Source: Squalus acanthias (lineage: Eukaryota). From it: a stretch of 64,000 bases of DNA. Where the stretch lies: contig CM059432.1 in assembly GCA_030390025.1 (NCBI GenBank), positions 74,898,001-74,962,000 on the forward strand, in the 5' to 3' direction. Below, piece by piece: positions 1-62,309 of this stretch; positions within the stretch are counted from its first letter, which is position 1, and the number at the start of each line of letters is the position of its first letter. The translations under genes were made by a program, and so were the position numbers. The notes beneath the pieces are model-generated. The model saw only the letters and a list, made by a program, of their open reading frames with translations, did not search any database and was not told the DNA's origin.

Positions 1-1329
1 AATATCACTGTTATATTAAATATTTATCAATTCACAACTACTCAGCAGAACATTACAGTTATAATGAAACTGTTAAAGGTGTTAGAAACACATCCATCAG
101 CTATGTAAATGTGTTAAATTGTGCCATCAACTGTTATGAACAGTTGGAATCTATTGAACAAAACAGAAGTGAAAGCTAATAACAACCACTATTTTTGTAT
201 TTATATTTTGCTTCTCACGTAAATAGAAATGTTAAAGCACTTCACAATCCAAAGAGCATGAAAAGGAGGAAATCTAAAGGGGGTAGAGAGCAAGAATATT
301 GTCAAACAACAGTAAAAACTGGAAACACACAGCAGCTCAATCAGCATCTGTGTAGAGGACAGACTGTCCGTGTTTCAGATGTGTAATCTTCTTGAAACAT
401 GGTCAAGGAGATAGCTTTTGTAAGCAGGGAAAGAGCTAGGAAGGTGAAATGTTTTGGAACAGGGGCATAATACTTAAATGATTTTATAGCAAAGAGAGCA
501 GGAAACAAACAGTACTCCACAGTCAAAGGAGCAAACGTGCACACAGATATATATTGCTGAAAAAAAAATTGTTCAGAAAAAATTGAGAAATGCCATGGAG
601 AAATTTGAAGATGAAGATGAAAATCTTGCAGTCAATTTGCTAGGGCACTGAAAGCCAGAGGAGCTTGGCAAGAACTGAGGTGATGCGTGGGATGTGGAGT
701 AAGCAGATTGTTTAACTTATGCTACGCAATACCTAAGAACACGAGCGCAAAATTAACAAGCCTTAAGATGAAAGGTTCTACTTTATTCCATTCACTAATT
801 TTAGTGAAAAAGTACATGTAAGTATAAATTGAATACCACTTTATACTCACTTCTACTTTATTGCTAAGATCAGCACACAGAGGAATTATGCTCCAGGGTG
901 ATTTGGCCTATCATTTTTTTCCTGCAGTAAGTTCTTCCTAAAAGTAGCCAGTGAGTGAATAGACAAAAGCAGTTCATTGTGTGTTGATTAACTCCTGTAA
1001 AAAATGAAGCTGGATAAATATCTGGCTAAGAACAGGATTGAAGGCAATAAGGATAAGTATAGATATTGATGAGTAATGGTGCCTGTGCTACTGGGACCAT
1101 AGGAATGCCTTCTATGGCATGAAACTGGTTAAGGATGAAAAAGGAGATTAGTGAAAATATAGGGTAGATTTTATGAATTAGCAGTCCCATCGCAGGAAGC
1201 TCTGCACTTGGAGCAGTAATTTGTAAGATCTAACCCATGAAGTCTAAGAAGGAGACATTTAATAAAATTAAGGCTAGTAATATGGAAGAAACCCACTAGA
1301 AAAAACAAAAGGAGAAAGCGCCTTAAAGT

Positions 1330-5929: not shown

Positions 5930-8103
5930 GGGGGGAAAAAATTGGGCTACTTACCGCCACCCGTTAGCGTCGGAATCCTGGAAAGAAATGGCGGCTGCCG
6001 CTCTAATGCCTGCCTCTGGTGCGGGACTCGGCAGCCGCCATTTTGGTGAGGGCCATAGCGCTGCCGTTAACAGCAAACAGCATGCAAATATGGGGAGCGT
6101 GACACGCCGACTTAACGCCACGCTCTGCGAAGTTGGCCCTTTACGCTGAGTTCAGCGCTGGGTCCTAAGCTCACTCTGAAAAACGGGCCTGCAGCAGACC
6201 GACAGAGATGCTGTCAGCACTTCTTAAAGGGACACACACATCTTTCAGAAAAGTTTGCATTTAAGCTTTTGGACTGGATGTTTTATATTTTATTGAAGTA
6301 GTGGCTTGGTGCAATATGTGCTAAAAGTTTTTAAAGTGTGCAGGGACTGCAGGGAGTTCTGCTGGATGCTTGTGAGGCCTTGGATGGTAAAGGAAGGCCT
6401 CTAGAAGACAGAAAATGCTGGAAATACTCAGCAGGTTAGGCAGCATCTGTGGAGAGAGAAACAGAGTACACGTCTCAGGTCAAGATTCTACCTGACCTGC
6501 TGAGAATTTCCAGCATTTTATGCTTTTATTTCAGATTTACAGCATCCGCTCACAGAGGGAGAAGGAAGCAGAAGGAAGAATGCAACCCAAACAGCCCCTT
6601 TCTGGCCGAGATATCCGGGATGGAATCATCCATCTGCAATACCAGTGACCACAACCCCAATTCCTCTTTCAACATTTGTCCCACACCTTACCTTCCCTCT
6701 GTTACTGACCATCACAGCGTCCTCTTGGCCACAATGTTGAAATAAAAGCCATCACAAAGCAAACTTTCCAATCCAACTTTATACCTCTATCCATCCAATA
6801 TGACATCAAAAAATCAACTAATCAGCTTTGTGCATTCCCTTAGTGACTGTCTTGTGTCTGCCTTTGCCTATCCTAGTGATGTAATGCAGTGCTACCGCAG
6901 TGGCTGCAGCATTGCTGGTGGAAGGCTGCTGACTTTCAGTGGGGGACACTGCATATGGCCTTGCAGGTCGACCTTGAGGAGCTGGTGGCTGGGAGTGTAA
7001 AATCGAGTGATGGTGTTTCTTCTTCACTCTCCTCTCCCTCTTCTTGGTCAACCACTGGCTGGGCAGGCTGCATTACTTGGGTGTGTAAAATGAGGAAGGC
7101 ACAAGGGTGGAGTTGTGGTAATGGGAGGGTGGGAAAGCAAGAGGTGCATGCGAGAAGGAGGATAATGCATGAGGATACCAGCATCTTGTATCCTTTCAGC
7201 CCTGCTGTGGGCCGGGGCTCAGCCATGCCCCTGCCAAGAATGGCCTGCACCATCTCCTCCATGGGGGTGAGGTGAGGCTAGGAATGGGAGGTGTGCCTCG
7301 TGTTTGGTACAGATTATTGGTAGGTGAGTGATGCGGTGGGGGGGGAGTCGTGTGTTGAGAAGTGTGTGAGGCTGGTGGTGTAGTTGGTAGGAGATGGTTT
7401 TTGAAGATGCATTCACTGACCTTGACCACTGATCTGTGGTCATGAAGCTTCCTTGGGCACTGCAGCCAAGTCGTAGGGGTGACACTGGTGGCAGTGACGG
7501 CCTTGGTGATCTGGTCCCACATCATTCTTTCTGGAGGGCCCCTGGCCCTTGTGGGTAGAGGGCCTCTCTTGCAGTGTTGACTCCCTGCACAACGCTGGAG
7601 TGCTGCGTACAAGACCCTGGGTGCCCTTCCCTGGCTTGCTGAGCCATTTGTGTTACTGCTGAAGCACTTTTCCCATTTTTTTTTGGTGTGGCTGGCAGTT
7701 CGGCTTTCAGAGCTGAAGACTCCCGTTTGGGAATTCTTTTTAATGTTAATTTTTTCTCAGAAGGCAGTTGAGCTCTAAGGGCTAAAAACTGCCTTGTTAT
7801 AAATTATTTTTATTTTTTTCATTTTAGAAGGCAGTTCCCCTTTAAGGGACCAACACTGCTTTCTAAAATGACAGCCTTGCTTTAAGAGAAGACTGTTCTT
7901 GCTCCAATGACGATACAGTCACGCTACATTGGACCTCCTGCTGAGACTACCGCCATGAAAACCAGCCTTGCACAGTAAGTTTAGTGCTGCGCTAATGTTA
8001 ATTAGGAAGCAGCACCAATATACCGGTACTGCCTGCGCTATTAATTTAACTGCGGCCCATGGTGCCATCGGCAGGTTTCTAGCGCGCTTGAATTTCTAGG
8101 CCC
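5930..8103. mobile_element. Internally deleted PIF/Harbinger transposon with a Myb/SANT-like gene remnant (-) and a probable transposase 3' end (+)
   Basis: TTG duplicated at 5927-5929 and 8104-8106; termini GGGGGGAAAAAATT ... AATTTCTAGGCCC. Minus-strand peptide MWDQITKAVTATSVTPTTWLQCPRKLHD resembles the trihelix Myb/SANT motif. Plus-strand ...SGRDIRDGIIHLQYQ* near 6600-6648 resembles a HARBI1-type C-terminus. Confidence 0.75.
6405..6549. mobile_element. Penelope-like terminal fragment in inverted (hairpin) arrangement, inside the Harbinger element
   Basis: aaaatgctggaaatactcagcaggttagg ... cctgacctgctgagaatttccagcatttt form an inverted pair. The same sequence forms the 3' end of the Penelope copy at 16280-16330. 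Confidence 0.7.
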
Positions 8104-11940: not shown

Positions 11941-14395
11941 CAGTTCTTCTCATCAGCGTGTTCTTTCATTCACTAGTGCTAGTACAACTTACCAGTATTT
12001 CCAATAGATGAGACAGGAGAAGAAATGTTCAGGCGGGTACAGCATGCATTAAGATTCAGCAGTATGCGCGATAAGTGTTCACCACTGGGGTACTCCTCAA
12101 GACATGGCTGTAATCAGGCCTTTGTAAACAGTTCCTGCCACTGACCACATTCATATATCCTTTGTTCATCAAGGATAGATTCAAAGAAATAAATGGCTCA
12201 CTGATAAATAAGATAAGATTACTTTTTGAAACATTCTAAATTATAAATGGTCATTATTGATGAAAAAAATGACTTTGTAAATTGCACTTATTTCATCTGT
12301 ACAACTGCAGTCAATCAGATCAACAATACTCCGATATTACAGCGTAAATCCAGAGCCAGCCTGACACTGGATTCTCTGCTTAAATGTGGAGTCAGTTAAT
12401 CTGGATTTACAGTACACCTTTAGACTTGGTGTGAAGTGAAAATGATTTTCACCAGTGCTACGGTTATAGTGTGATGTAGGCTAAAAGTGTTGGATTAAAA
12501 TTCGTCTTTTACATTACATTGGCAGATGTTTTTAAACAAAGCTATTTAAGTAGAAGCCGATGAATTACATTAAAGTTCCGAGCCACAACACTTGTATTTT
12601 GAACAAAAAACAAAACATTGCAAATGCTGGAAATTTGAACAAAATAATTTGCTGGAAACACTCCGCAGGTCAGGCAGCATCTATGGAGAGAACAAAGATG
12701 ATGTTCTGGGTATGGACCCTCCCTCAGAACTTGTACTTTGATCACGTTAAGATTTTTCAGGATTGTGTTATGTATCAGTTGACAGAATGTTTGTAATGGT
12801 TACCAAAGTTATCCAAAGGCAGGGAAACTCAAAACCAGCTCAAGCCACCATCTGTGGTCCAGATTTATCAAGAACAAAGGAATTACTTTTAGCCACAAGA
12901 TGTCGCTATTGTGCTTGGCCATAATATATTGTTGATCACTTGAAAAGTGACATCCAATGGTAGCAAGAGTAGCCTTCAACTCATTTTAAATGCTTAATAG
13001 ATTAGGTATATGAATTAGGATTTTGATAAATACACGTTGGCCCTTAGTTCCTTGTTTTAGGTGAGTGGAAGTGTTGAAGATATAGACAACGCGCCTATAG
13101 GCAATAGATGTATTCAGCCCAAGATTTAGCTCAGAGAAGCAAACCAAATGGTTGACTGGGTTTAGGTTGGCTATGAATAGGCCTGACTTCTCCAGCTCTG
13201 CTTGTGAACTATGTAATGATTTTTGTTCCAACAATGCAGTGCAGCAAGCACATAACTGCGCTGTTACCCTCTTAGTACTGAAAAACCCTTTAAACTTTTG
13301 AACACTTCATTTTCATATATAACAATTTCTAATGCTGAACATTGTAAATTAAAAGAAAAAGTAACTGGTCAGTGTTTTAGAACTAATTGAGCAAAAAAAC
13401 CTACAGTCTTGTTAGATTTTTATTCAGAAATGTATTGCTGTCTTCAGAAAGGTGGTATCCATTTATTGTCACTTGTAAACTGCATTTGAAAATTGATCTT
13501 TAATTGTAAACCATTTTTAAATGAAGACACAGTTCTTTCTGAAAGTACATTGCAATTCTTTTTTTAAATTACTGGGGATGAAATTGATCTTCGGCAGTAG
13601 TAGGAACCAGCTCATGGCGAATTAGCAGCCCGTTTTACACTGCGCTTGATTTTCTTTTCCATTGAAGTCAATGTTTAAAAGATGTAAAAGTTCATTGAAA
13701 AGGATATCTGTTTAGATGTTGGTCACTTAAAGAAAAATGTTGCACTGATATTTAGAAGAAAAAAATGACCGCTCATAACAACTGGATGCCACAATAGGGA
13801 ATGGGGGAAGGAACTGTAGGGTCTTCCTGGATGGATGAACGAAGATGAGCTAATTAGCCTTGATCAACTGTAATTATTTTGCAATCTTGTGATAAACAGC
13901 GTGCCTCATGCATTTGAGACTTGGAATGTTTTAAACTGAGCATCTTAACGCCATTGGCAGAATCAATTATCTCTATTTGGAGCCATTCAGAACTTCAGCT
14001 TTGGCTGAAAGCGTGAAAAATTATTAAGGAGCTGAATTCCTAATGTGAAGGGCTTCACAGCCAGCATGATGATATCACAGAGCCATTGAGACCTTTAGCA
14101 ACATATAACATATAGTGGATTACACCACTAAACTGTGTTGGTTACTACTTCATCTCAGCAGGAGCGATTTCCTAATAAAAACAATAAGAAGAAATATTTA
14201 TCTATCTAAATACTTACGGGCAAAATTATTTATGCATTTCATAGATGTTGGATATTTGAGATCTGAATTAAAATAAAACTTCATTAAATGGAAATTTTAA
14301 TTTGTCTAACCTGGATAAAATTCAGTTTGGCACTATTGATTTTAATTTACCATAATTTTGTGATTGCTTTTTGCATTTCATTCTTTTTGTCCCAG

Positions 14396-14631
14396 ATCTT
14401 TCTCCATGGCAACAACCTGAACAGTCTGCACCAGCTAATCCATCCAGAATATCTGCCATCTGAGTTTGGAGGCATCCTACCCCCATATGATATGGGAACC
14501 TGGGCACGGACACTGCTAGGTCCAGAGTACAATGATGATACTGAATATACCTACAATTCCTACAACTCGATGCATGTGAAAGACATGCTGGATAATCGTG
14601 ATAGCAATTGTTCTCCCAAGCATATGAAGAG
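14396..14631 (+). CDS. CLVS1: Clavesin-1 penultimate coding exon: [45 protein letters not shown]...SPKHMK(R)
   Basis: Polypyrimidine tract plus cccag acceptor at 14395; donor gtttgt at 14632. 236 nt, phase 0/2, in frame with both neighbouring exons. Confidence 0.95.
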
Positions 14632-15475
14632 GTTTGTACAGTCTCGTTATATCAGCTGTTGCACTGGATTTCCATTGGAGCTTTCAAAATCTGCGCATAT
14701 TCCTGTCTATTTTTCAATGCATTTTATAATAATGTCAAATTAAAGTCCCCCAGAAATTAATGGGCAAATGCACCATGTGGGATAGCACTGAGGCAGACAG
14801 AACAGGAGGAGGAGAGAAAATAAGAATAAAATCAAATTGTAAAAATGCTACAGTGATTCTCGGAGTTCAAGGTGTATTTAAGTAAATCAATGATGTTGTA
14901 ATCAACAGTACTAATTTCCAGGAGATGCAACACCTGCCCTTTTACCTCCCCCCCTTCCCACTGTCCAGGGCCCCAAACACTCCTTCCAGGTGAAACAGCG
15001 ATTTACTTGTACTTCTTGCAATTTAGTATACTGTATTCGCTGCTCACAATGAGGTCTCCTCTACATTGGGGAGACCAAAAGCAGATTGGGTGACCGCTTT
15101 GCGGAACACCTCCGTTCAGTCTGTAAGGGTGACCCCGAGCTTCCGGTCGCCTGTCACTTTAATTCTCCGCTCCACTCCCACTCTGACCTCTCGGTCCTCG
15201 GCCTCTTACACTGTTCCAATGAAGCTCAACGTAAGCTCGAGGAACAGCACCTCATCTTTCGATTAGGCACTTTACAGCCTTCTGGACTCAACATCGAGTT
15301 CAATAATTTCAGACCATAACCTCTGCCCCTATCTTTTTTTCCATTTTTTTTCTCTCTCTCTCACATGGCAGCTGTCGATCATTCTGCCATTGGCATTTAC
15401 ACATCATCTTTTGTTTCTTAACTTGTCCCATTACCATCTCCTTTGGCCTTGCACCATCATCTCTTTTGTCTCTTA

Positions 15476-16113
15476 GGGGGAAAAATTTGGTTGCTTTGCG
15501 CCTCCCGTTAGCGCAAAGCAACTAGCACCCGGGCGCGGCGCCGCCTACGTCTCCCACAAAATTCAGCGGGAAGTTAGCGGCGATGGTAACCGGTAGCGCC
15601 CCACCATGCTGTGCCGTCGACGATGACGTCATCGCAGTGCGCAGCACCCCGGCCTCGATCTTCGGGAGCGCCCCCTGACTTACCACCGGACACTCTGTCC
15701 AACGGGGTCAGGGGGGCCTACCTGCGGCCGTGGAGGCGCTATTTAAAGGCGAGGTGCGGGGTGGCCATTTTTGTTGCTGGCTGCCTGCCAGCACCTGCCT
15801 CCTTACCCACCCCCCCCCCGCGGAGAGCCAGCTGCACTCCCGATCCCCTGGGGCCCAGCTGGGCCCCGGGTCGCGCTGCGCAAGGCCCCTCCCCTTTAAG
15901 AAGGGGAGGAAGGCCTGCAATACCGCGGTGCGACGTGCCGCAGCGCGTGGTACTGCGGCATGTTGCACCACGATATTCCCTTGCAGCGCCCCACGAGGGA
16001 GGCGGGGCACTTCCAGTAGCGCCCCGCTTCCCTCTTGGGGCGCTACCATTCAATTTCCGTAGCGCCCCGGCGAAGTTAGCGCCCCAAAGGGGGCGCTACT
16101 CAATTTTTAGCCC
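15476..16113. mobile_element. GC-rich PIF/Harbinger-type MITE nested in the Penelope element
   Basis: TTA TSD at 15473-15475 and 16114-16116; termini GGGGGAAAAATTTG ... CAATTTTTAGCCC. The empty site matches the uninterrupted Penelope copy near 43725-43750. Confidence 0.88.
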
Positions 16114-16229
16114 TTAATCTCTCCTGCCTTCCATCCTATCACAGACCTTCCCTTTTGTTCTTTTCTCCCCTCCCCCCTTTCCCTGCCCCTACACTTGCTT
16201 AAAAACCTGTTACATCTCCAGCTTTTTCC

Positions 16230-16266
16230 AGTTCTGACGAAGGGTCATCGACCTGAAACGTTAACT
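16230..16266 (+). ncRNA. Minimal type I hammerhead ribozyme motif in the Penelope terminus
   Basis: Stem I AGTT / core CTGACGA / extra A / stem II GGGTC-ATC-GACCT / GAA + palindromic ACGT + T / stem I AACT. Confidence 0.75.
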
Positions 16267-16496
16267 CTGTTTCTCTCTCCACTGATGTTGCCTGACCTGC
16301 TGAGTATTTCCAGCATTTTCTGTTTTTATTTTAGTACTAATTTCCATAGTGGCTGTGAAAATCACAATTTCAATGCATGTTAGACATTTGGCAGAAATTA
16401 ATTTAAAGGGGCAATGCTGCCTCTCTGGGGCTTCAGGCAGGCTCAGATCCTGGATCAGTTAGGAATAGTGTACAGTGGAAACTCATTTGTAACTCT

Positions 16497-22498: not shown

Positions 22499-24324
22499 GG
22501 GCCGTATTTTCCGATCGGAGGCTTCCTGCGTGCGGAGGCCTCCGATCTGGAAAAAATCTACGGACTTATCTGAGGGCTCCCGAGGTCTGGACACTTCTGC
22601 TCCTGGGCCTCTCCAACTCGAAATGTGCAGGGCCCACATATCCCAGAGGTGCATGCGGTTCGCAAGCGTCCCTGGAATCACGTGGGCCATGGGGAGCCAA
22701 TCAAAGAAGGGAATCTCCCTTCATACACTTGACAGATAGACCTGTCAAATATATGAATGGAGATCACCCCAAAAACACTGTAAAACATTAAATACATTTT
22801 TTTTTTATTACATTTTTAAAATTAGTTGAAATTACAAAAAATTAAGATAAGATAGATAAGGGAGAACCAGTGGATGTGGTGACTTTGGATTTTCAGAAGG
22901 CCTTTGATAAAGTCCCACATAAGAGGTTAGTGTGCAAAATTAAAGCATATGGGATTGGAGGTAATATACTGGCATGGATTGAAAACTGGTTAACAGACAG
23001 GAAACAGAAAGTAGGAATAAATGGGTCTTTTTCGGGGTGGCAGGCGGTGACTAGTGGGGTACCGCAGGGATCAGTGTTAAGGCCCCAGCTATTCACAATA
23101 TATATCAATGATTTGAATGAGGGAACCAAAAGTAATATTTCCAAGTTTGCTGACGACACGAAACTAGGTGGGATTGTGAGTTGTGAGGAGGATGCAAAGA
23201 GGCTTCAAGGCGATTTAGACAAGTTGAGTGAGTGGGCAAATACATGGCAGATGCAGTATAACGTGGATAAATGTGAAGTTATCCACTTCGGTAGGAAAAA
23301 CAGAAAGGTAGAGTATTATTTAAATGGTGATAGATTGGGAAATGTTGATGTATAAAGTGACCTGGGTGTCCTTGTACACCAGTCACTGAAAGCAAACATG
23401 CAGGTGCAGCAAGCAGTTAGGAAGGCAAATGGTATGTTGGCCTTCATTTCAAGAGGATTTGAGTACAGGAGCAAGGATGTCTTACTACAGTTGTACAAGG
23501 CCTTGGTGAGACCACACCTGGAGTACTGTGTGCAGTTTTGGTCTCCTTACCTAAGAAAGGATATACTTGCCATAGAGGGCGTGAAACTTATAAAATTCTG
23601 ACCGGGCTAGACAGACTGGATGCAGGGAGGATGTTTCCCCTGGCTGGGAGGTCTAGAACGAGGGGTCACAGTCTCAGGATACGGGGTAGGACATTTAGGA
23701 CTGAAATGAGGAGATATTTCTTCACTCCGAGGGTGGTGAACCTGTGGAATTCTCTACCACAGAAGGCTGTGGAGGCCAAGTCACTGAATATATTTAAGAT
23801 GGAGATAGATAGATTTCTAGACACAAAAGATGTCAAGGGGTATGGGGAGAGAGCGGGAATATGGTATTGAGATAGAGGATCAGCCATGATCCTATTGAAT
23901 GGTGGAGCAGGCTCGAAGGGCCGAATGGCCTACTCCTGCTCCTATTTTTCTGTTTCAAAATATTTTAAACAAAAATTGAATTTTTTGAAAAAAGTAATTA
24001 AAGTTTTTTACGGGGCTAAAAATAAACTTACCTTTTTTGAAGTATTTCTAAATGATAAATGAGTGAAATCATTATTTTTTTTACTTTTTTCAAATCTTAT
24101 GCTGGTAAAAGCAGGCCTTATGCCTGCTTTTACCAGGCGTAAGATTTCTAAGGGTGTTCCGCGGGCGGAGGTTCTCCAGAAAGCGGAACTCTCCCCCCAC
24201 AGAGGCCCTTCTCTAGGGCAGGCGTCCGATCTGTCAAGAACAATCTTGACAGATCAGAAATGCCGGTTTTCAGCATGAAACCGGCATTTCCGATGTCCCT
24301 ACGGGTGTGTAGAGTATGCCGCCC
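22499..24324. mobile_element. Harbinger-type non-autonomous element nested in the hAT element, itself carrying a CR1 insertion
   Basis: CAT duplicated at 22496-22498 and 24325-24327; termini GGGCCGTATTTTC ... GAGTATGCCGCCC. Shares motifs AATAAACTTACC and GCCGGTTTTCAGC with 2398-3140. Confidence 0.75.
22850..23956 (+). mobile_element. 5'-truncated CR1 LINE (RT plus 3' end)
   Basis: ORFs 22870-23355, 23398-23601 and 23538-23870 (DFQKAFDKVPH, FADD, RTRGHSLRI). The 3' UTR closely matches 17955-18060 in the opposite orientation. Confidence 0.92.
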
Positions 24325-31115: not shown

Positions 31116-32683
31116 GAGGAGCAAGGGAGATTGGCTAATACCTTGTTTGTGTATGCATCTGCACAGTCTGAGCAACAGAATACTTGGTTATCATGTGCTA
31201 TTTAGAAGAAGATGCAAATTTGATCAGCAATCCTATTTATATAGACAACTGTAGAACAACTCCCTGGTGAAAGTAATCCTATTAAGTTGCTTTGCTAAGT
31301 GCAAATGACTTATTGTGTGATACATCTTGACAGACTACAGGGAGATTTTCTACACTTAGCAGATGGAACAAAATGTCCTATTCAGAAGCAATAACTACTC
31401 TTCCGTAGGAAATATTGCTGAGCGTGTATGAATCCATATCAACAACATGCATATACACACACATTACATTAATAACTTGCAGTTATATAGTGGAGGGGTC
31501 CCGAGAGGTGGTGGAAAGGTAGAGTAAGTATCTGTAGTGTACATGTGTAAGCTGACCCCTTGTCTTCAGATGATTTCACCAAGGGGCAGCAAGTAGATGG
31601 GGAGAGGATGGAGCCAAGGATAGATCCATGGGGGACTCCAGAGGTAATGGTGTAGGGATGGGAAGAGAAGCTATTGCTGGAGATGCTCTGGCTATGATTT
31701 GAATGGACAAGAGTGGAACAACAGAGAAGTTGGAGGACGATGGTGTGGCCATCCATCAAATGCTGCAGAGAGCAAAGGGGCACGAGGAGGGAAATGTACC
31801 AAGCAAATAATGTGATATTGATTAGGACCGTTTCATTGTTGTGTCGGGGCAGAAACCTGATCAGAAAGATTCAAACTTGAAGCTGTGTGAAAGCTGGGCT
31901 TGGGTTTGGCATTCAAAGCCTTTGGAGAGCAAAGGGAGGTTAGGGATTGGAGAAAATAACAAGACTGAAGATTGACAAATCTCCAGGACCTGATGGCTTC
32001 CACCCTAGGGTATTAAAAGAAGTAGATGAGGTAATTGCAGATGCTTTAATCATGATCTTCCAATGCTCTCTTGATTCAGGAATTGTCCCCTTGGATTGGA
32101 AAACTGCCAATGTCACTCCATTATTTAAGAAAGGCGGGAGAGAGAAACTAGGAAATTGTCGACCTATTAGTCTATCGTCTGTTGTGGGGAAGTTACTAGA
32201 ATCTGCCATTAAGGACAGAGTGCTTGGATAACTTCCAACATAGCACAGGAGGAGCACTTGGATAAATATGAACTGATCAGAGAGAGCCAGCATGGATTTG
32301 TAAAGGGTAAGTCTATTCTAACTAACTTAGTTGATTTTTTTGAGGAGGTCACTAATGTAGATAAGGAAGTGTCTATGGATGTTATTTATATGGACTTCTA
32401 GATGACATTCGATAAGGTTCCTCACAAGAGGCTGTTAGCAAAAATGAAAGTGCATGGAATTGGAGGCAACCTATTGACATGGTAGGGACTTGGTTAGGAG
32501 GTAGGAGACGGACAGTAGGGTGTAGGAATGGGTATGTACTCCAGTTGGCACGATGTGACTAGTAATGTCCCACAAGGGATCTGCACTGGGGCCTCAATTT
32601 TCACTATATTTATCAATGACCTAAATGAAGGAAATGAGAAGTTGCACAACACCAGGTTATAGTCCAACAGGTTTATTTGAAAT

Positions 32684-32718
32684 TACGAGCTTTCGGAGCT
32701 CTGCTCCTTCGTCAGGTA
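32684..32718 (-). ncRNA. Minimal type I hammerhead ribozyme motif (mirror copy)
   Basis: Exact reverse complement of 32734-32768. Confidence 0.8.
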
Positions 32719-32733
32719 CAGTGACCCTCACTC

Positions 32734-32768
32734 TACCTGACGAAGGAGCAGAGCTCCGAAAGCTCGTA
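32734..32768 (+). ncRNA. Minimal type I hammerhead ribozyme motif
   Basis: TAC / CTGACGA / A / GGAGC-AGA-GCTCC / GAA + palindromic AGCT + C / GTA. Confidence 0.8.
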
Positions 32769-33400
32769 ATTTCAAATAAAACTGTTGGACAATAACCTGG
32801 TGTTGTGCGACTTCTCATTTTTGTCCACCCCAGTCCAACACCGGCATCTCCGCATCATAAATGAAGGAAGAGAGAGCCATATATTTGCTAACAACACTAA
32901 GTTAGGTGGCACAGTAAGTCATGTAGATGGGAGCAAAAAGTTGCAAGGGGTATTGATAGATTAAGTGAGTGGGCAAAACTGTGGCAGATGGAGTTCAATA
33001 TGGGGAAGTGTGAGGTCATCCACTTTGGATGATCTCACAATAAGGAAGATAGATCAAAGTATTTTCTGAAATAGTGAGAAGCTAGGAACTGTGGAGGAAC
33101 AGAGAGAGTGCAGATTGGAACAGAGTGTTAAACTGCGAGTTTGGTGAGTGAGGGAGTTTGGGGAGGGAGGTATTCCTTTCTTTTTCCATCTTTGTCAGCT
33201 TCCAGGAGAGCAGGAGCTAAAAAGCTGCACAAGAGGGGACAGAGAACCAGTGGTGAGTATTTCTACATTCCAGTCATTAAAGTAAAAGTAAGGTCTCTAG
33301 TTTAGAGTAAGTAGTGTTTAAAGGGAAGTAAGGTCCCTAGTGTATTTAATATTCTTTAATTTAAAGGGAGTAAATTAAGGGTAGGACATGGCAGGGCAGC

Positions 33401-34342
33401 GTGGAGTGCTCCTCCTGTGCTATGTTGGAAGTCAGGGACACTTTAGGTGTCCAGGGCGAACACATGTGCAGGAAGTGTCTCCAGCTGCAGCTACTCGAAA
33501 TCCGTGTTTCGGAGCTGCAGCTGGAGTCACTGTGGAGCATCCGCGAAGCTGAGATCTTCGTGGATAGCATGTTTAATAAGGTGGTTACCCCACAGTTAAA
33601 GAGTGCACAGGCAGACAGGGAATGGGTGACCGCCAGACAGAGTAAAAGAACTAGGAAGGTAGTGCAGGAGTCCCCTGGGTCCATCTCCCTCTCCGACAGA
33701 TTTTCCGTTTTGGATACTGATGGGGGAGATAGTTTCTCAGGGGAATGCAGCAAGAGCGAAGTCCGTGGCACTACGAGTGGCTCAGCTGCACAGGAGGGGA
33801 GGAAAAAGAGTGGGAAAGCAATAGTGATAGGGGATTCTATCGTAAGGGGAACAGATAGACGTTTCTGTGGCCGCAGATGTGACTCCAGGATGGTACGTTG
33901 CCTCCCTGGTGCCAGGGTCAAGGATGTCACTGAACGGCTGCAGGGCATTCTGAAGGGGGAAGGCGAACAGTCAGAGGTCGTAGTTCACATTGGTACCAAC
34001 GACATGGATAGAAAGAGGGATGAGGTCCTGCAACAAGAATTTAGGGAGCTAGGTAACAGATTAAAAAGCAGGACCTCAAAGGTTGTAATCTCTGGATTAC
34101 TCCCGGTGCCACGTGCTAGTGAGTATAGGAATAGGAGGATAGAGCAGATGAATGCGTGGCTAAAGAGTTGGTGCAGGAGGGAGGGCTTTAGTTTCCTGGA
34201 TCACTGGGTCTGCTTCTGGGGAAGGTGGGACCTGTACAAGTTGGACGGGTTGCACCTGAACCGGAACGGGACCAACATCCTTGCAGGGAGGTTTGCTAGT
34301 ACTGTTTGTGGGGGGGGGGGGGGGGGGGGGGGTTTAAACTAA
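33401..34342 (+). CDS. CR1 ORF1p: CxxC..CxxC zinc-finger/leucine-zipper N-terminus plus SGNH/GDSL esterase domain
   Basis: Motifs CSSC...CRKC, IVIGDSIVRG, VVHIGTND and DGLHLN. The likely ATG at 33388 is out of frame with the ORF, so the start appears damaged. Confidence 0.85.
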   Translation: MECSSCAMLEVRDTLGVQGEHMCRKCLQLQLLEIRVSELQLESLWSIREAEIFVDSMFNKVVTPQLKSAQADREWVTARQSKRTRKVVQESPGSISLSDRFSVLDTDGGDSFSGECSKSEVRGTTSGSAAQEGRKKSGKAIVIGDSIVRGTDRRFCGRRCDSRMVRCLPGARVKDVTERLQGILKGEGEQSEVVVHIGTNDMDRKRDEVLQQEFRELGNRLKSRTSKVVISGLLPVPRASEYRNRRIEQMNAWLKSWCRREGFSFLDHWVCFWGRWDLYKLDGLHLNRNGTNILAGRFASTVCGGGGGGGGLN

Positions 34343-34460
34343 CTTGGCAGGGGGATGGGATACGGAGTGGAGCTATACTAGGGGTGATGCACAGCCAAAT
34401 AAACAGGAAAAAGCAAGTCAGCCTGGAAGGCAGAGCAAATATGTAACGGCACAAGGGAGT

Positions 34461-37327
34461 ATGGCAAGGCTGGATGGCATTTATTTTAATGCAAGGAGTC
34501 TTACGAGTAAGGCAGATGAATTGAAGGTGTTGATGAACACATGGGAGTATGATATTGTTGCTATCACAGAGACATGGTTGAGGGAGGGGCAGGACTGGCA
34601 GCTCAATATTCCGGGGTATAGAATCTTCAGGTGACACAGAGGGGGGTGTAAAAGAGGAGGGGGTGTCGCAATATTAATCAAGGAGTCAATTACTGCTGTA
34701 TGGAGGGATGATATCTTAGCAGGTTCCTCTAATGAGGCCATATGGGTAGAACTTAAAAACAAAAAGGGGGCAAGCACTTTGCTGGGAGTGTACTATAGGC
34801 CGCCAAACAGTCAGGAGGAGATAGAGGAACTGATATGTAGGCAAATCTCAGAAGTGTAGAAATAATAGGGTAATAATAGTAGGGGATTTCAACTTCCCCA
34901 ATATTAACTGGGATAGTCAGAGTGTGAAAGGCTTAGAGGTTGCGGAATTCTTAAAGTGCATCCAGGAGAGCTTTTTGAGCCAGCATGTAGAAAGTCCTAC
35001 AAGAGAGGGGGTGGTACTGGATCTAATTCTAGGGAATGTAGCCGGGCAAGTGGTAGAAGTGTCAGTAGGAGAGCATTTTGGTGACAGTGACCATAATTCG
35101 GTGAGATTTAAGGTAGTCATGGAAAAGGACAAAGATGGACCGGAAATAAAGGTTCTAAATTGGGGGAAGGCCGATTTTAATATGATAAGGCAGGATCTGG
35201 CCAAAGTGGACTGGGATCAGCTACTTGTAGGAAAATCCACATCAGAGCAGTGGGAGTCCTTCAGAAAGGAAATAGAGAGTACAATGCCAACATGTTCCTG
35301 TAAAGGTCAAGGGTGGGACCAACAAGCCCAGGGAACCCTGGATGTCAAGGGATATACAAGAATGGAGTAGGAAAAAAAAGGAGGCTTTTGGCAGATGCAA
35401 AGGACTAATAACAGTGGAAGCCCCAGAGGAGTATAGAAAGTGCAGGGGGGCACTTAAAAAAGAAATTAGGAGAGCGAAGAGGGGGCATGAAAAAACACTG
35501 GCGGGCAAAATAAAGGAAAATCCCAAGGTGTTTTATAAGTATATTAAGGGCAAGAGGATAACCAGGGAAAGAGTAGGGCCCATTCGGGACTAAAGTGGCA
35601 ATCTGTGTTTAGAGGTAGGTGAGGTTTTAAATGAATATTTTGCATCTGTGTTTACTATGGAAAAGGACGATGTAGGCATAGAAATCAGGCAGGGGGATTG
35701 TGATATACTTGAACAAATTAGTATCGAGAGGGAGGAGGTACTAGCGGTTTTAGCGGGCTTAAAAGTGGATAAATCCCCAGGCCCAGACGAGATGTATCCC
35801 CGGCTGCTGCGTGAGGCAAGGGAGTAGATTGCAGGGGCTCTGACACAAATTTTCAGAACCTCTCTGGCCACAGCGGAGGTGCCAGAGGACTGGAGAACAG
35901 CTAACATAGTACCATTATTCAAGAAGGGTAGTAGGGATAAACCAGGGAATTACAGGCCAGTGAGCCTAACATCAGTGGTAGGGAAATTATTGGAAAAAAT
36001 TCTGAGGGACAGAATTAGTCTCCACTTGGAGAGGCAAGGATTAATCAAGCATAGTCAGCATGGCTTTGTCAGGGGGAGATCGTGTCTAACCAATTTAATT
36101 GAATTTTTCGAGGGAGTGACTAGGTGTGTGGATGAGGGTAGTGCAGTTGATGTAGTCTACATGGACTTCAGTAAGGCTTTTGACAAAGTCCCGCATGGGA
36201 GACTGGTCAAGAATGTAAGAGCCCATGGGATCCAGGGCAATTTGGCACATTGGATCCAAAATTGGCTTAGTGGCAGGAGGCAGAGGGTGATGTTCGAAGG
36301 TTGTTTTTGTGACTGGAAGCTTGTGTCCAGTGGTGTACCGCAGGGATTGGTGCTGGGTCCCTTGCTGTTTGTAGTGTACATTAATGATTTAGATATGAAT
36401 GTAGGAGGTATGATCAGTAAGTTCGCAGATAACACGAAAATTGGTGGAGTGGTAAATAGCGAGGAGGGAAGCCTCAGGCTACAGGATGATATAGACGGGT
36501 TAGTTAGATGGGCAGAACAGTGGCAAATGGAATTTAACCCTGAAAAGTGTGAGGTGATGCATTCTGGGAGGACTAACAAGGCAAGGGAATACACAATGAA
36601 TGGTAGGACTCTAGGAAGGACAGAGGATCAGAGGGACCTTGGTGTGCATGTACATAGATCCCTGAAGGCAGCAGGACAGGTAGCTAAGGTGGTTAAAAAG
36701 GCATATGGGATATTTGCCTTCATTAGCCGAGGCATAGAATATAAGAGCAGGGAGGTTATGATGGAGCTGTACAAAACGCTAGTTAGGCCACAGCTGGAAT
36801 ACTGTGTGCAGTTCTGGTCGCCACACTATAGGAAGGATGTGATTGTATTGGAGAGGGTGCAGAGGAGATTCACCGGGATGTTACCTGGGCTGGAGCGCTT
36901 TAGCTATGAAGAGAGACTGGACAGGCTGGGGTTGTTTTCCTTAGAGCAGAGAAGGCTGAGGGGGGACCTGGTTGAGGTGTACAAAATTATGAGGAGCATA
37001 GATAGGGTAGATAGAAAGGAACTTTTCCCCTTAGTAGAGGGGTCAATAACCAGGGGGCATAGTTTCAAGGTAAGGGGCAGGAGGTTTAGAGGGGATTTGA
37101 GGGAAAACTTTTTCACCCAGAGTGTGGTTGGAATCTGGAACTCACTGCCTGAAAAGGTGATAGATGCAGGAACCCTCACAACATTCAAGAAGTATTTAGA
37201 TGAGCACTTGAAACGCCATAGCATACAAGGCTACGGACCAAGTGCTGGAAAATGGGATTCGAATAGACAGGGCTTGATGGCCGGCGCGGACACGATGGGC
37301 CTCTTTCTGTGCTGTATAACTCTATGA
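34461..37327 (+). pseudogene. CR1 ORF2 (endonuclease-reverse transcriptase), inactivated
   Basis: Several stops/frameshifts (e.g. TGA 34632-34634, TAA 35591-35593). The RT catalytic motif reads FADN instead of FADD. Confidence 0.9.
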
Positions 37328-43300: not shown

Positions 43301-43493
43301 TGAGTTCCATGGGAAGTAGTTCCTCTCTTTATCACACTGCAGTGGTAAGAGTACCGGACCATGTGCATGAGAAAATGCCATTCAGCCTATCACAAGATTG
43401 AAACCAATGAGGAAGGTCTTTCAACTCATCCAGGAAGAAAATTGCAGTCCCCCATCACAGTATTCAGCTGTTTCTTAAACAAACCTTAATAAT

Positions 43494-45186
43494 ACAAAAG
43501 CAAAATACTGCGGATGCTGGAGATCTGAAATAATAACAGAAATTGCTAGAAATACTCAGTAGGTCAGACAGCATCTGTGAAGAGAGAAACCTAGTTACCG
43601 TTTCAGGCCGATGACATTTCATCAGAGTTGGAAAACATTACAGATGTAACAGGCTTTAAGCAAGTACAGAGGCAGGGAAAGCCAGGACGAGAGGAAAGAA
43701 CAAAAGTAATAGGGTGGAAGGAAGGAGAGATTAAATGACAAAAGGGATGATGGTGCAAGGCGAAAGGGGGTGGTAATGGGACACGTAAAGAAACAAAAGA
43801 TGGGTCTAGAAGTGTAAATGGGAATAGCAGAATCATCAACAGGTGCCGTCCAAAAAAAATGGGGGCAGAGGTTATGATCTGAAATTGTTGAACTCATTGT
43901 TGAGTCCAAAGGCTGTAAAGTGCCTCATCGAAAGATGAGGTGCTGTTCCTCGAGCTTACATTGAGCTTCATTGCAACAGTGTAGGAGGCAGAGGATAGAG
44001 AGGTCAGAATGGGAGTGGAGTGGAGATTTAAAGTGACAGGCGACCGGAAGCTCAGGGTCACGCTTGCGGACTGAATGGAGGTGTTCTGCAAAGCAGTCAC
44101 CCAATCTGCATTTGGTCTCCCCAATGTAGAGGAGACCACATCATGAGAAGCGAATACGGTATACTAAATTGAAAGAAGTAAAAGTAAATCACTTTCACCT
44201 GGAAGGAGTGTTTTGGGCCTGGGAAGGGAGGAGGTAAAAGGGCAGGTGTTGCATCTCCTGGGTTTGCATGGGAAGGTGCCATGGGAAGGGGAAGGGGTGT
44301 TGGGTGTGATTGAGGAGTGGACCAGGGTGTTGCGGAGGGAACGGTCTCTTCAGAATGCTGAAAGGGGAGGGGAGGGGAAGATGTGTTTGGTGGTGGGATC
44401 ATGCTGGAGATGGTGGAAATGGCGGAGGATGATCTGTTGAATGTGGAGACTGGTGGGGTGAAAGGTGAGGACAAGGGGAAGCCTATCATAGTTCTAGGAG
44501 GGAGGGGAAGGGGTGAGAGAAGTGCGGGAAATGGAACAGACACAGTCGAGTACCATGTCAACCACGATGGAGGGGAATCCTTGGTTGAGGAAAAAGGAAG
44601 ACATATTGGAAGCACTGGTATGGAAAGTGCCATTGTTAGAACTGATGCGACGGAGACGGAGAAACTGGGAGAATGGAATAGAGTCCTTTCAGGAAGTGAG
44701 GTGGGAGAAAGTGTAGTCAAGGTAGCTGTGGGAGTCAGTGGGCTTATAATGAATATTAGTCGATAGCCTATCCCCAGAAATGGAGACAGAGAAGTCGAGG
44801 AGGGGAAGGGAAGAGTCGAAGATGCACCCTGTGAAGGCAAGGGAAGGGTGATAATTGGAAGTAAAGTGAATGACATTTTCCACTTCGGGGTGAAGTGAAA
44901 AATGTCATCAATGTACTGAAAAAAGAGGCGAGGGAGGGGACCCAAGTAGGACTGGAACAAAGAATGTTCTACATATCCCACGAAAAGGCAGGCATATCTA
45001 GGAGCCATGCAGGTTCCCATAGCAACACCTTTTATTTGGAGGAAGTGATTGGAGTCAAAGGAGAAGTTGTTCAATGTGAGAACAAGTTCAGCCAGGCGGA
45101 GGAGGGTGGTGGAATGGGACTGGTTGGGTCTCTGTTCAAGGAAGAAGCGGAGCGCCCTCAGGCCGTCCTGGTGGGGGATGGAGGTG
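43494..45186 (-). mobile_element. Penelope-like retroelement (RT plus GIY-YIG, frameshifted) with 3' terminal region
   Basis: ORF 44097-45074 begins NNFSFDSNHFLQIKGVAMGTCMAPRYACLFVG...FFQYIDDIF (Penelope-type RT). The downstream part is highly similar to 14921-16332. Confidence 0.92.
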
Positions 45187-46142
45187 TTGTCTCTTATTTT
45201 CCCCTATGAGGCATCCTCTCTTTCAAGCTGAAAGGCGAAGTTTCTCTCGTCTTTCCTTATAACTCAGTTCTTTGATGCCAAGTATCAGCCTCACTTCTAA
45301 GGTTTCAACGTCTCAGTAGCCAAATCATTTAAGCTCACATACAGAAACCATTTTGATCTCACCCCTGCCTTATCCTCAAAGGGTTAATGTTCTTTAGCTG
45401 GTTTTTACTAATCTGTCACCTTGTGCAGCCTGCCGTCTATCGACAGCAATAAATAATACAGATTTCCTGCATAATGAATGATCCTTTTTCTACTGTGCAT
45501 CACCACTTTTTACTTATTCCACCTGCACCTCACTCTCTGACCAAATTATAGCAAATGTTTTATCCTCCAATTAATCCAAAAGGTTAAAATGGATTAGTAA
45601 AAATGAGCACAGAAAAAATAAAGGTCAAAATCCCTCCCACACAAGCTGTTCCTCCAGAGGTAATTCCAGGATAAATACAACTGTACTGAGAGATCCTTCG
45701 CAAATCATTGTAGCGTTTTGCAAGTTAAGTCCGAGGGTGCTCTGTTAATTATTCTTTTAAAAGTGCAGCAGATTTGAGCATTTACTCCACAGGCATAATA
45801 CATGTGCAGTCTACCACAAGTCTATTAATCCAGCTTCTCTAAACGAGTGACTGCCAATTAAGTCAGAAACACTGTGCCGGCACCTTTGTTCTCAAGCTTG
45901 CTAGTAACATTTATCGTAGTTTTTAGTTGCAAAATGCTTTTATTTCTCTCAGTTTCAGATAATAATTGAGATAAATAACAGCAGTATATGCAGTAGCCCC
46001 CTGCTCTCTCGCTTTAAATTGGTTGGAATGCATTTTTGCTCCTCAATCAGCAAGCCTTTTACAAATATAATTGTAATACATTCATTTCCCTTTTTAAAAG
46101 TTCTAATGTTTGTAATTACTATGTCATTTAAAAAATGTTTTA

Positions 46143-47208: not shown

Positions 47209-50200
47209 AGGCTTGTGTTATCCATTTTGTTTTGCTACTGCCAAACAAAACCTGGGCTGGAGCAAGCGAAAACAGAGCAGGAACTCTAGTAAGTTCTTGA
47301 GCTATGTTACGGTGTTCGGGAAAACAGCAGGGAAGTGGCATTAGGCAGATTTACATTTTGGAAACTTATCCAAAAACTTTGAGACATTTGATCAACATTT
47401 CAGAAGGTTATGATGTTTGTAGTCATGATATCCACCAAACTTAGGAAATAAATTCCAGAAATTCAGCCTCCTTTGCAGTTTAACCAACTAATTTGATTTT
47501 TTGCAGTATATAATATTGTATTTACTTTACGTGCTGCTACTGGCTGTACTGTAAGGGTAATGAGGCAGCGCTACTGCCTTTGGAGCGACAGACAACTATC
47601 TCTAGATGGATTTCCGCAGAACATTCTAGGAAATGGGCACAGCAACAATGTAAATAACTGCCAATGGCTACATTACTGCCATTTTGTTTTTCTGGTTAAA
47701 GGCAGGTTCAGCACTCGGCCCACCTGAACAGACCAGCAATGTAGTTTTCCACTTGCTGGATTGTACGATGGACTCAACACCACCGACAGTAACAAAAACT
47801 GCACATATACCGTTATTAAAGTAACAGCAATTTTTAATTTCTGGTTGTTCGACATTGCGAAGTAACGACATATGAGCATTTTTTGTGTTTGTTAGAACTG
47901 TGGAACTCATCATCCAATGTCAATGGGACAGATTCTACAGCACCAGAGCTTGAGTGCATGATCGAACTGTCTTACATTTCTGTAATATAAACATTGCGTT
48001 TCTCTAGTTGCCTTTATAAATACTGATCAAGTTCTAACTTTATTTTAATGTTTATCTCTCTCTTTTGCATCCCAATCAATTGGCTCTTGATCCCTGAAAT
48101 ATTGCTGACAAATTATTACACTAATTGGATGTATAAAACAGAGACCCACACACCTGTCTCAGATTTTTTTTCAATCGTTATTTCTTTCTTCTTTAAAGTT
48201 TGATGGTATTCCCTGAAGCTTCAGTTGTCTTTAGCAACTTGAAGAAAAATAAATCATCTTGTCCTATTCTGCAGCTTTTTTTTTATTCCACCCCACCCCC
48301 AGCAGCTCTGATCCCTCCATAGTTTGTCCTTTCATCCTCCTGGCAGTTCTGCTCTCTCTGTGACCTTTTAGCCATTGCACCCAGTAGCTCCAGTTTTTAT
48401 TGGAGCACTTTCTACCTTCCCCTGGGAGCCCTGATCATTGTTACAGACTCGTCTGAAATACTCCCTTCCCCCTCTATTCTTTATATTAGCCATTTATCAG
48501 CTCCTCCTAACACTTTCAATACTTTACCCCAACAGTTATATTTTTCTCTCTTCCCATTGCCTTCAAACAAAGAGATAGAAAAAAACCACAATTAGAAATG
48601 AAAGCTTTGTAACGGGAATGACAAACTGAAGGCTGGAGATGAAAAGTGGAAGAAAAAGTCACAGAAAGAAAAAGAACAAATGGATTGAGAAGACACAAAC
48701 ACAAGATAGATTTCTCAGCACTACACAGCCAGATACTCCAGCAGGGCAAAATCACACTTAGCTCTCAGTTAATACTGCCTGAAAAACATCCACTAATGAT
48801 TTCAACAAGAAAATAAGGGCTAGGCTACTGGAGGTGTTAGCTCAGTATAATTCTATTTGAGAAAATTAGAATAAACTCTTCAGTATTGTATATGAAAATA
48901 AGACCCAAGGATAGCCTGATAATAACAGAGCAGAAACCCTTGTAACAAATCTGTGGCAAAAGGAAGCTGGATTGATCAGTGTAATAAGTGAAATCAGTGA
49001 AACTAATGAAAACTTGGGCATTTCTGCAGTAATATTGCTGTTAAATACCCCATTAAATGTTAAGCCTTGTTGGAATAGGTATAATTGGGGTTTTAATAGC
49101 GTATTGATGGGTAAACAACTGTTCTGGCCCTGAAAACTGATTTTTATATCTTTGGAGTGTCTAATTTCTCCATTATAATAAAAATTACAATTTAAATTTT
49201 TTTTAAATTTTTTTAAAGTTTGTTCTTGATATTTCAAGCTTCTACCTTATTCCCATTTGAGAGTCCTAATTTTTATTTCGCTCTCTGTAACATTTTTAAA
49301 AAGTCTGGATAAAAGCTGCTTCTCATTTCCTGGTTTCCTGTCTGTGAGAATTCTGCAATGTGATTGGCTGCTTAGATAGCTTGTTGACGTCACTGCAGCA
49401 TCACACTAGGAATTCCCATTACAGAGCACTGCAATTAATTGAACAAAAAAGGCAAACTTCTCACTACAGCGATTGCAAGATCTCTGTGGGGAGCTTTCTT
49501 TGGTGCCAGCAGCGAGAGTCTTTGCTTCGCTGCTGACCGCAAATTACTGGCCAATAAGTTCAAATGCAATGCTGTGACGCAAGTGAATTTGCAACTGGGA
49601 AATTCACACAGGTGTATGCTATACAATGCATTTTACAGTAACTGGGTTGATACTGACCAAACTCATTTTACATAGGACCTTTACAGTTTCGGCAAAAGAG
49701 ATTTCCATACCATCTGCGTGAGCCAGGTTGCAAACACAGGTGCCAGAGAAAGGCCAGTGTCAAATTCACAATACCCACATCTTCTATATTACACCAATGT
49801 AATAACATGTTCCGGTTCGGACGAAGGGTCATAGACCTAAAACGTTACCCCGGCCTTCTCTTCTCCGATGCTGCCTGACCTGCTAACTCTTTCCAATATG
49901 TTGTTTTTATTTCTTATTTGCAGTATCTGGCTTTTGGCTCAGTTTGGAACATCTATGGAAACTCCATCCTTCAGGAGGTGCCTAACGACACAATCCCCAG
50001 TTCTATCCATTCCTACCCGTTCAAAATTAATTTTTTCTCCCTAATTGCGCTTCATTTTAGTTATTTTGGTAGCATTCTTGATTTTGTTTTGAAACTTGAC
50101 TTTTCAACTGAAGGTTTTTTTTAAAAAAAAATTTGTTTGCAATCTAGTATTGTCTTTTTTTAAAATAGATAAAGCCCAATAGAAATTCATGTTAAAATAT

Positions 50201-54045: not shown

Positions 54046-54130
54046 GTCACAGTCGGTGGTAGAACCAGGTGTGCTGAAGCACGAAGACAGGGATGATGAT
54101 AACACTCAGCCACTACTGGCTCTGGACTGA
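54046..54130 (+). CDS. CLVS1: Clavesin-1 last coding exon: (R)SQSVVEPGVLKHEDRDDDNTQPLLALD*, with C-terminal clathrin box LLALD
   Basis: Acceptor ttgcag at 54045; a phase-2 join completes the Arg codon AG|G; TGA at 54128-54130. Too short for the ORF track, so translated by hand. Confidence 0.95.
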
Positions 54131-61525: not shown

Positions 61526-62309
61526 TCATGTGCTTCTGCCCTCACCAACCTATTTGCTGTTGGAGTAAAAACATCCATTTCAGAAGAAATGTATGCATCC
61601 AGTGAGGATAAAAGGTTCAACTATGAAGTCTTTTTTCACAACACCCATTCTCAATAACCTTTCTGGGACACAATGTCCTTGCCAAAATTCTATAAAATGA
61701 AGCTGACCTAGACATGTTATTGATTCATTTGCTTTTCAAATGAACCACTAAGTGCATCCTATTGATTCACAGGCAAGTATGAAATGGGGGTGGGTAGGCC
61801 AGGGTTAAAGGTCAAAAGCGTGCTGTCAACCCTGAAGCTACTGCTTACTAATGATAATTGCTCACCGCAAGACTTAGCATACAGATTTGAAGATCCTCTA
61901 ACATAGACTACTTCTGTTGCTATTCTTTCCAATGTACCAAACATAATCTGACTTATCAGTCAGTACTGCTAAGAAAGGAATGCATTAACTCATCCCTGTG
62001 CAGCTGTTCTGTATGCTAGGCTACGTAGGGCAATCTATCTATATTAGCAATGGGACTCCCATGAATAGCTTTTTAAAAAAAAAATAAGTTGACTATTTGA
62101 CCCTTTACTGATCAAATAGGCCCATTAATAAAATGGGTTCAGACAAAAGAAATGCACTGCTATTCAGCTTGTAAAGAACTAGTACCAACCGGCTGGGTTC
62201 CCCAGCTGTCATGTGGCTGCTGTTCTCAATTCACTCCTCCCAGTGGTTTCTGTGCTGCTTTTCCTGTTAGTGGGTACACAGCCAATTCCTTTCATGTGTA
62301 ATGAAACTA

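Follow-up and report, generated by a model that had tools for sequence, protein, structure and literature searches.

A short hairpin with two hammerhead motifs in a shark intron: a probable 5'-truncated insertion of a Penelope-like element

Insertions of Penelope-like elements (PLEs) have been described as containing an inverted, 5'-truncated copy and a tail of 30-40 bp, often at one end only (PMC8557442). The PLEs of rotifers have inverted pLTRs, mostly head-to-head, a 31-bp tail and a target-site duplication (TSD) of 8-10 bp. Self-priming was inferred from their palindromic inverted junctions, and according to the same source mobilisation in trans is possible for the pLTR sequence on its own (PMC3846280). 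Inverted copy, tail and TSD are listed as routine traits for curators (PMC8969392). Pairs of minimal hammerhead ribozymes, lying about 100-700 bp apart on opposite strands, were reported in 2014 and read as truncated PLEs (Cervera and De la Pena, PMC4209133), and the self-cleavage activity published for the minimal motif is low (PMC4209133).

The PLE protein of a lizard (PAc, Poseidon of Anolis carolinensis) was described to cut and extend both strands of A+T-rich DNA and to start at two adjacent sites of its RNA, the interval between them being the tail. Hammerhead cleavage is protein-assisted in this system, and it was not needed in vitro (Frangieh et al. 2024, PMC11167929). When hammerhead dimers of Xenopus were assayed, one of nine was cut (bioRxiv 10.64898/2026.07.22.740005). 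The definition of animal retrozymes requires a head-to-tail tandem arrangement (bioRxiv 10.64898/2026.07.22.740005; PMC7229834), and according to the former source they derive from pLTRs.

The fold-back pattern is already described in this literature, and the hairpin presented here, found in a window of 64 kb (the whole stretch of DNA that was analysed), probably does not represent a novel type of mobile element. It is very probably the dead-on-arrival product of an abundant Penelope-like retroelement with an endonuclease, inserted in an extremely 5'-truncated form.

The insertion and its host site

The insertion comprises 224 bp and is enclosed by exact 12-bp TSDs at 32622-32633 and 32858-32869 (+ strand, 75% A+T, 12/12 identical). 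Its composition is 91 + 3 + 91 + 39 nt. The left arm (32634-32724, - strand) is an inverted, 5'-truncated and tail-less copy of the PLE 3' end. It is followed by the loop of the head-to-head junction, which consists of three C residues (32725-32727), and by the right arm (32728-32818, + strand), a forward 5'-truncated copy of the same 3' end. The one-sided PLE tail (32819-32857, + strand) ends at the main 3' end of the family. With two more complementary nucleotides of the left arm that lie inside the TSD, the inverted arms cover 32632-32724 and 32728-32820, that is 93 nt with four mismatches (32643/32809, 32661/32791, 32671/32781 and 32719/32733). The first-pass annotation had described an insertion of about 224 bp with a perfect 12-bp TSD, which proved correct. 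Of its 93-bp arms and 37-nt tail, the arms and the 3-nt loop stood; the tail has to be given as 37-39 nt, since the left arm begins with two nucleotides that are part of the TSD.

Four differences per 91 nt between the arms suggest that the insertion is not brand new. One of them, at 32791, is peculiar to the right arm: the left-arm base was found in 87-99% of the family depth in assembled contigs of four public runs. Elsewhere in the window no match to the element was obtained (blastn, word size 7), except for two chance hits of 15-17 nt, and this upheld the earlier statement that it belongs to a second family. No tandem array was found at the hairpin site.

The host site is a decayed LINE reverse-transcriptase (RT) region at 31948-33028 (+ strand), identified by similarity to other copies in the window and interrupted by the insertion; 31948-32633 and 32884-33028 match 19493-18834 and 18813-18668, respectively. 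The flanks are collinear with a homologous copy at 22846-23355, in which the TSD sequence is single (23114-23125), and it follows that both the duplication and the insertion are true. The host and the neighbouring LINE are presumably of the CR1 type, as they will be called here. The neighbouring long copy (33374-37327, + strand) gave RVT_1 and ORF1 esterase hits, and contains an esterase-like ORF1 (322 aa open) and an RT frame of 499 aa. A perfect 28-nt inverted repeat (32231-32258 and 33405-33432, 1146 nt apart) brackets the hairpin element and corresponds in sequence to the beginning of the ORF1 frame in this copy, at 33374. The insertion is held by a 39.4-kb intron (14632-54045, + strand; AG/GT ends, matching phase) of a CRAL-TRIO (CRALBP-like) gene, whose flanking exons lie at 14396-14631 and 54046-54130 (+ strand; the second is the last exon), with an exon match to retinaldehyde-binding protein 1 (E 2e-6). 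We take this gene to be clavesin. By its repeat types the genome resembles that of a cartilaginous fish.

The window also holds copies of another PLE family, here called family A. The first-pass annotation had noted two coding Penelope copies; those at 14907-16346 and 43487-45200 are PLE copies with RT and GIY-YIG pieces, but they are decayed, with stops and frame changes. The former is 5'-truncated and tail-less, lies inside a 14-bp TSD, and contains a GIY-YIG piece with a stop and an intact-looking minimal hammerhead at 16230-16267. The latter (- strand) is longer and retains RT and GIY-YIG remains, a degenerate hammerhead and a tail. A head-to-head fold-back of family A was found at 6405-6552, with an inverted arm without tail (6479-6405) and a forward arm with tail (6483-6552); the arms are unequal, a whole hammerhead is lacking, and no TSD is clear (best 7 nt). 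Additional old fragments of the 3' end of this family are located at 12606-12731 (- strand), 49817-49927 (+ strand) and 305-357 (- strand).

Two additional features of the window were recorded. The family-A copy at 14907-16346 is itself interrupted at about 15473-16116 by a G+C-rich insert of about 640 bp with a short T/A-rich duplication at its flanks and G-rich/C-rich inverted ends, presumably a Harbinger-type non-autonomous element. At 62309-64000 there is an array of a 30-bp tandem repeat (about 60 copies, 97% matches), which runs off the window end.

Hammerhead motif and predicted folding

A descriptor scan revealed a minimal type I hammerhead motif in the right arm at 32734-32768 (+ strand), with its predicted cut 3' of C32765, and the left arm carries the identical 35 nt at 32684-32718 (- strand). 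The two motifs are spaced 15 nt apart. In the right arm, stem I has 3 bp (32734-36/32766-68) and is followed by the core CUGACGA (32737-43) and an extra A (32744). Stem II, which is closed by G-C, has 5 bp (32745-49/32753-57) and a 3-nt loop, and after it come GAA, the palindromic helix III AGCU (32761-64) and C17 at 32765. The motif therefore shows the CUGANGA / GAAA / UH core, the extra nucleotide after A9, the G10.1-C11.1 pair and the palindromic helix III that mark minimal hammerheads, and its earlier assignment to the minimal PLE type agrees with the traits given in PMC4209133.

The generic minimal-hammerhead descriptor matched four places in the window (32737+, 32715-, 16234+ and, more loosely, 9116-), whereas 100 Markov-1 simulations averaged 0.05 per 62 kb. 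The family-specific pattern gave two matches in the window and none in 100 shuffles. Both the identity of the 35 nt and the descriptor result, far above the simulations, confirm that a complete minimal core is present in each arm, as had been annotated. It had further been noted that all four arm mismatches fall outside the motif. The fact is correct, but such a distribution arises by chance with a probability of 0.14-0.15. The sparing of the motif was considered as a sign of selection and was rejected at this chance-level p of about 0.14.

The Rfam search that the first-pass annotation had proposed returned nothing at gathering score in the whole 64-kb window, and no hammerhead model matched. 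In 32500-33000 the search at E<=10 gave 12 hits, which were miRNA-type stems and weaker matches and included no hammerhead family; near the element the long stem dominates this search, and the motif of the other PLE family at 16234 was also missed. The sub-threshold miRNA hits, all owed to the long stem, would fit a microRNA hairpin or a DNA-type foldback element or MITE in which the hammerhead-like motif arose by chance. This explanation is effectively refuted, as the motif is far beyond chance and shows a compensatory change in comparison with two related loci (L001 and L002, described below). Moreover, the inverted repeats are not terminal, 39 nt of tail lying between the right arm and the TSD, and the family copies in contigs of four public runs are mostly without hairpin geometry.

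The whole insertion was predicted to fold at -160 to -166 kcal/mol, with a pair probability of 0.0 for hammerhead stems I and II on either strand. When these stems were forced, the energy was -95.8 kcal/mol, a cost of about 64 kcal/mol. The monomer of one arm plus tail folded no better than its shuffles (z -0.61), with probabilities of 0.28 for stem II and 0.06 for stem I. In a cofold of two motifs the palindromes paired between the molecules and both stems II formed; the lowest-energy form paired the 3' ends, not the canonical junction. Each strand of the hairpin has one sense hammerhead only, so that no cis dimer can form.

According to these predictions the hairpin locks its ribozyme by geometry, its transcript pairing the ribozyme with its own antisense, which is what the first-pass annotation had anticipated for a whole-hairpin transcript. 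Any duplication in head-to-head orientation would give such a self-locking fold, without a need for design. The folding models indicate that the element is most likely inert.

Copies of the family and look-alike loci

Words shared with the element were found in 24 public runs, belonging to 11 studies and at least nine organisms. Contigs of four runs were aligned to 32725-33100 at 85% likeness (20071, 12406, 1913 and 7027 contigs). The reference for this comparison began at the loop, and no contig of the four runs spans the whole of 32725-33100. The right arm was covered by thousands of contigs in each of the four. In run X3 the summed word depth, which is not a copy number, reached 3.4-5.2 million over 32777-32841; it fell to 373 immediately after the TSD, and the thinnest bin of the flank had 16. 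The PLE family of the hairpin is a repeat of very high abundance, with its end at the tail. At 32725-32737 the depth in X3 was still 321k, which indicates that many copies reach that point. The 5'-ward fall of depth was set aside as proof of truncation, being partly an effect of the reference edge and partly one of subfamily divergence.

Loose ends behind 32857/32858 were seen in three of the four runs among the rows listed (24 of 944), with 121, 20, 191 and 384 contigs. In the same 24 rows the sequence behind the tail was heterogeneous and A-rich (agreement 0.34-0.41). Since the loose ends disagree and are A-rich, they point to many independent sites. The 15 joints listed of a total of 28 comprise eight from the element into CR1, three strand switches, one internal skip and three within CR1. 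Four of the eight element-to-CR1 joints leave the element at 32817-32823 and the other four at 32855-32859. The family thus has two recurrent 3' ends, one at about 32817-32823 and one at about 32855-32859. The inverted arm of the hairpin stops at the equivalent of 32818-32820, an end point common to other copies of the family (joints from 32817, 32817, 32821 and 32823).

The three strand switches among these 15 joints, 32735/32818, 32745/32782 and 32752/32787, are asymmetric and mutually different, so that truncation and inversion points vary in all three of this small sample. Judged by coordinates, each would contain one nearly whole hammerhead or none, and never two whole ones. The recurrence of the junction had been proposed as a check of mobility, and here none of the three strand switches shared the hairpin junction 32724/32728, in contigs whose shortness could hide a recurring symmetric one.

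These joints bear on the proposal that the hairpin is a non-autonomous unit, whose whole fold-back would be transcribed, carried in trans by a PLE protein and re-inserted with both hammerheads. Such a unit would be in line with the two intact and identical motifs and the clean TSD, with the mobilisation of a pLTR alone in trans (PMC3846280) and with the origin of retrozymes from pLTRs (bioRxiv 10.64898/2026.07.22.740005). However, the integrity of the motifs is at chance level (p 0.14), and the junction was common to none of the three other strand switches listed, short contigs as they are. In addition, the single sense hammerhead of the transcript is predicted to be fully paired, allowing neither self-cleavage nor a cis dimer, and the hairpin would bury the 3' region on which priming depends. 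We consider a unit of this kind very unlikely. Its description as retrozyme-like was not supported either: the other junctions lie elsewhere (all three strand switches listed), the head-to-tail tandem with same-strand hammerheads that marks retrozymes is replaced by a head-to-head arrangement, and the structure is one published for PLEs.

Another proposal concerns the parent, which might itself derive from a PLE end as a short non-coding unit without ORF, similar to a SINE or a retrozyme, the hairpin being one fold-back insertion of it. The absence of a linked ORF in the window and the very high depth over the last 130 nt would be expected for such a parent, and a few joints lead back into the unit from the end of the tail (32857 to 32742, 32857 to 32826 and 32858 to 32820; strand not given). 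The return points differ, however, as they do in partial tandems of PLEs, and the 75 contigs of run X19 that extend before 32735 agree at 0.40 only, which argues against a single upstream sequence. A non-coding parent is accordingly judged improbable.

A scan with a 28-nt motif detected two loci in metagenome contigs, and none in genome contigs or viral contigs; the scan with a pattern of the downstream sequence gave no match in either of two contig collections. The two loci, L001 (374) and L002 (109/110), are marine metagenome contigs with a hammerhead identical to that of the hairpin in 30 of 35 nt. The outer U-A pair of stem I is replaced by C-G, and besides this only N7, loop II and position 17 are changed. 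L002 comprises a frame with Cys-knuckle and GIY-YIG, a long 3' region and, about 750 nt downstream of the GIY-YIG ORF, the motif; in front of these stands an inverted piece of the L002 3' region. In L001 a 3' region of the L002 type is joined head-to-head to an RT piece. Both loci therefore combine PLE RT or Cys-knuckle/GIY-YIG sequence with head-to-head junctions, at different places. Neither the L002 endonuclease nor the decayed ORF of family A was recognised by Pfam, and they were identified by mutual tblastn and by known motifs.

The similarity of L001 and L002 to the hairpin unit in the downstream sequence was not significant, being reached by 157 of 2000 shuffles; with family A included, the counts were 157, 831 and 933 of 2000 shuffles, again not significant. 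Linkage of the terminal sequence to an RT and GIY-YIG ORF was seen in L001 and L002 only, that is in another organism and with just the 28-nt motif shared. On sequence grounds, these loci appear to illustrate the habit of the class and not the parent of the hairpin family. A Cys-rich, Zn-finger-like motif between RT and endonuclease, which is a mark of Neptune, is present in the look-alike locus L002. The PLE parent of the hairpin was probably of the Neptune type.

Variation was also observed within the family contigs. Position 17 was U in 28-94% of the depth among the positions listed (40 of 87 rows). Position 32768 was G in 51-92% of the depth and pairing was kept, its partner position not being among these 40 rows. 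As far as the aligned sequences indicate, the variation of the motif preserves the fold, both in L001 and L002 and in the family contigs.

Origin and comparison with known systems

Five of six marks of an insertion by an endonuclease-bearing PLE were found in the hairpin or its family, namely the hammerhead, the inverted copy, the tail with two 3' ends, the TSD and variable junctions. Mobilisation by a Penelope RT/GIY-YIG protein had been put forward in the first-pass annotation, and the anatomy, which matches published PLE insertions (PMC8557442, PMC3846280), speaks for it. The following course of events is proposed. The GIY-YIG endonuclease would make a 12-bp staggered cut in A+T-rich DNA and free two 3' ends, and from both of these the element RNA would be reverse-transcribed. 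The right end would prime at the downstream start site and yield the arm plus tail (+ strand), and the left end about 38 nt upstream, yielding the tail-less inverted arm (- strand). Both cDNAs would stop 6-9 nt past the hammerhead and then be joined head-to-head. A transcript from either side, host pre-mRNA included, would make the antisense arm first and form a 91-bp hairpin; the ribozyme would thereby be silent and the host intron uncut.

The polarity and the end points of the hairpin fit this two-primer model, drawn from the lizard work, exactly. We infer the coding parent in the host genome, the two-primer mechanism and the inactivity in vivo. A parallel for PLE debris of this kind is offered within the window by family A, with its fold-back at 6405-6552 and its tailless (14907-16346) versus tailed (43487-45200) copies.

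In a variant of the same origin, the first cDNA would snap back on a 4-bp stem with a 3-nt loop and prime itself. The product would be the same PLE debris, and the variant is counted within the preferred reading. It would make the junction a recurrent hot spot among independent insertions, without any mobile hairpin. The junction is symmetric, with its 3-nt loop, and the near-perfect symmetry fits the snap-back as well as two primers; self-priming is also what was inferred from palindromic inverted junctions in PMC3846280. The snap-back alone leaves unexplained why the inverted arm stops at 32818-32820, an end point of unrelated copies too, and the three other strand-switch joints among the 15 of 28 listed are asymmetric. 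We regard the snap-back as possible but doubtful. In either variant of the PLE insertion the double hammerhead is a by-product: the element carries its hammerhead at 50-90 nt from its 3' end, which is why two ribozyme motifs are present.

As it stands, the locus matters little: it adds a further stub to a known class. The family, with thousands of junctions and two fixed 3' ends, constitutes a natural data set, and its junctions could be used to test in a genome whether the start sites found with the lizard protein in vitro explain the long-unexplained structure of inverted copy plus tail. There is a slight chance that symmetric double-hammerhead fold-backs are re-copied as a unit, or are kept in introns since the hairpin silences a ribozyme that would cut the pre-mRNA and dsRNA silences the family. 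If so, sharks would carry a head-to-head counterpart of retrozymes, and re-copying or selection in introns would represent a new way for a ribozyme to be shut down by its antisense.

Compared with the minimal hammerheads of metazoan PLEs (PMC4209133), the hairpin shares the core, the extra nucleotide between 9 and 10.1, the G10.1-C11.1 pair, the palindromic helix III and the short helix I. Helices I and II have 3 and 5 bp, against 4-5 and 7-8 bp in the Schistosoma families, and the motifs are spaced by 15 nt, in contrast to about 100-700 bp in the published pairs (PMC4209133). The shark-type family of the hairpin is not named in the text of PMC4209133 considered here; the motif may be listed in the supplementary alignment of that paper or in the family tables of bioRxiv 10.64898/2026.07.22.740005, for which one cartilaginous fish was sampled.

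With animal non-LTR retrozymes the hairpin has in common that it is small and non-coding, has a type I hammerhead and comes from PLE terminal repeats (PMC7229834; bioRxiv 10.64898/2026.07.22.740005). According to the same sources, retrozymes are head-to-tail, with a hammerhead per unit on one strand, mostly canonical motifs and expression as circles, whereas the hairpin is head-to-head and has one sense motif per strand.

The two 3' ends one tail apart resemble those of PAc (Frangieh et al. 2024, PMC11167929). The hammerhead lies upstream of the start sites in both, and the cleavage and extension of both strands by PAc fit the fold-back (PMC11167929). The PAc hammerhead overlaps the ORF start, in contrast to the location about 750 nt behind the GIY-YIG ORF in the look-alike L002, and the mechanism was tested for PAc (PMC11167929), whereas for the hairpin we infer it.

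Finally, the insertion unit of endonuclease-bearing PLEs (PMC8557442, PMC3846280) is matched by the head-to-head inverted copy, the one-sided tail, the TSD, the hammerhead in the terminal repeat and the A+T-rich target. The TSD has 12 bp, compared with 8-10 bp in rotifer PLEs (PMC3846280). Unlike the described examples of such elements, the hairpin consists of only the last 91-130 nt, with a near-symmetric junction and no ORF.
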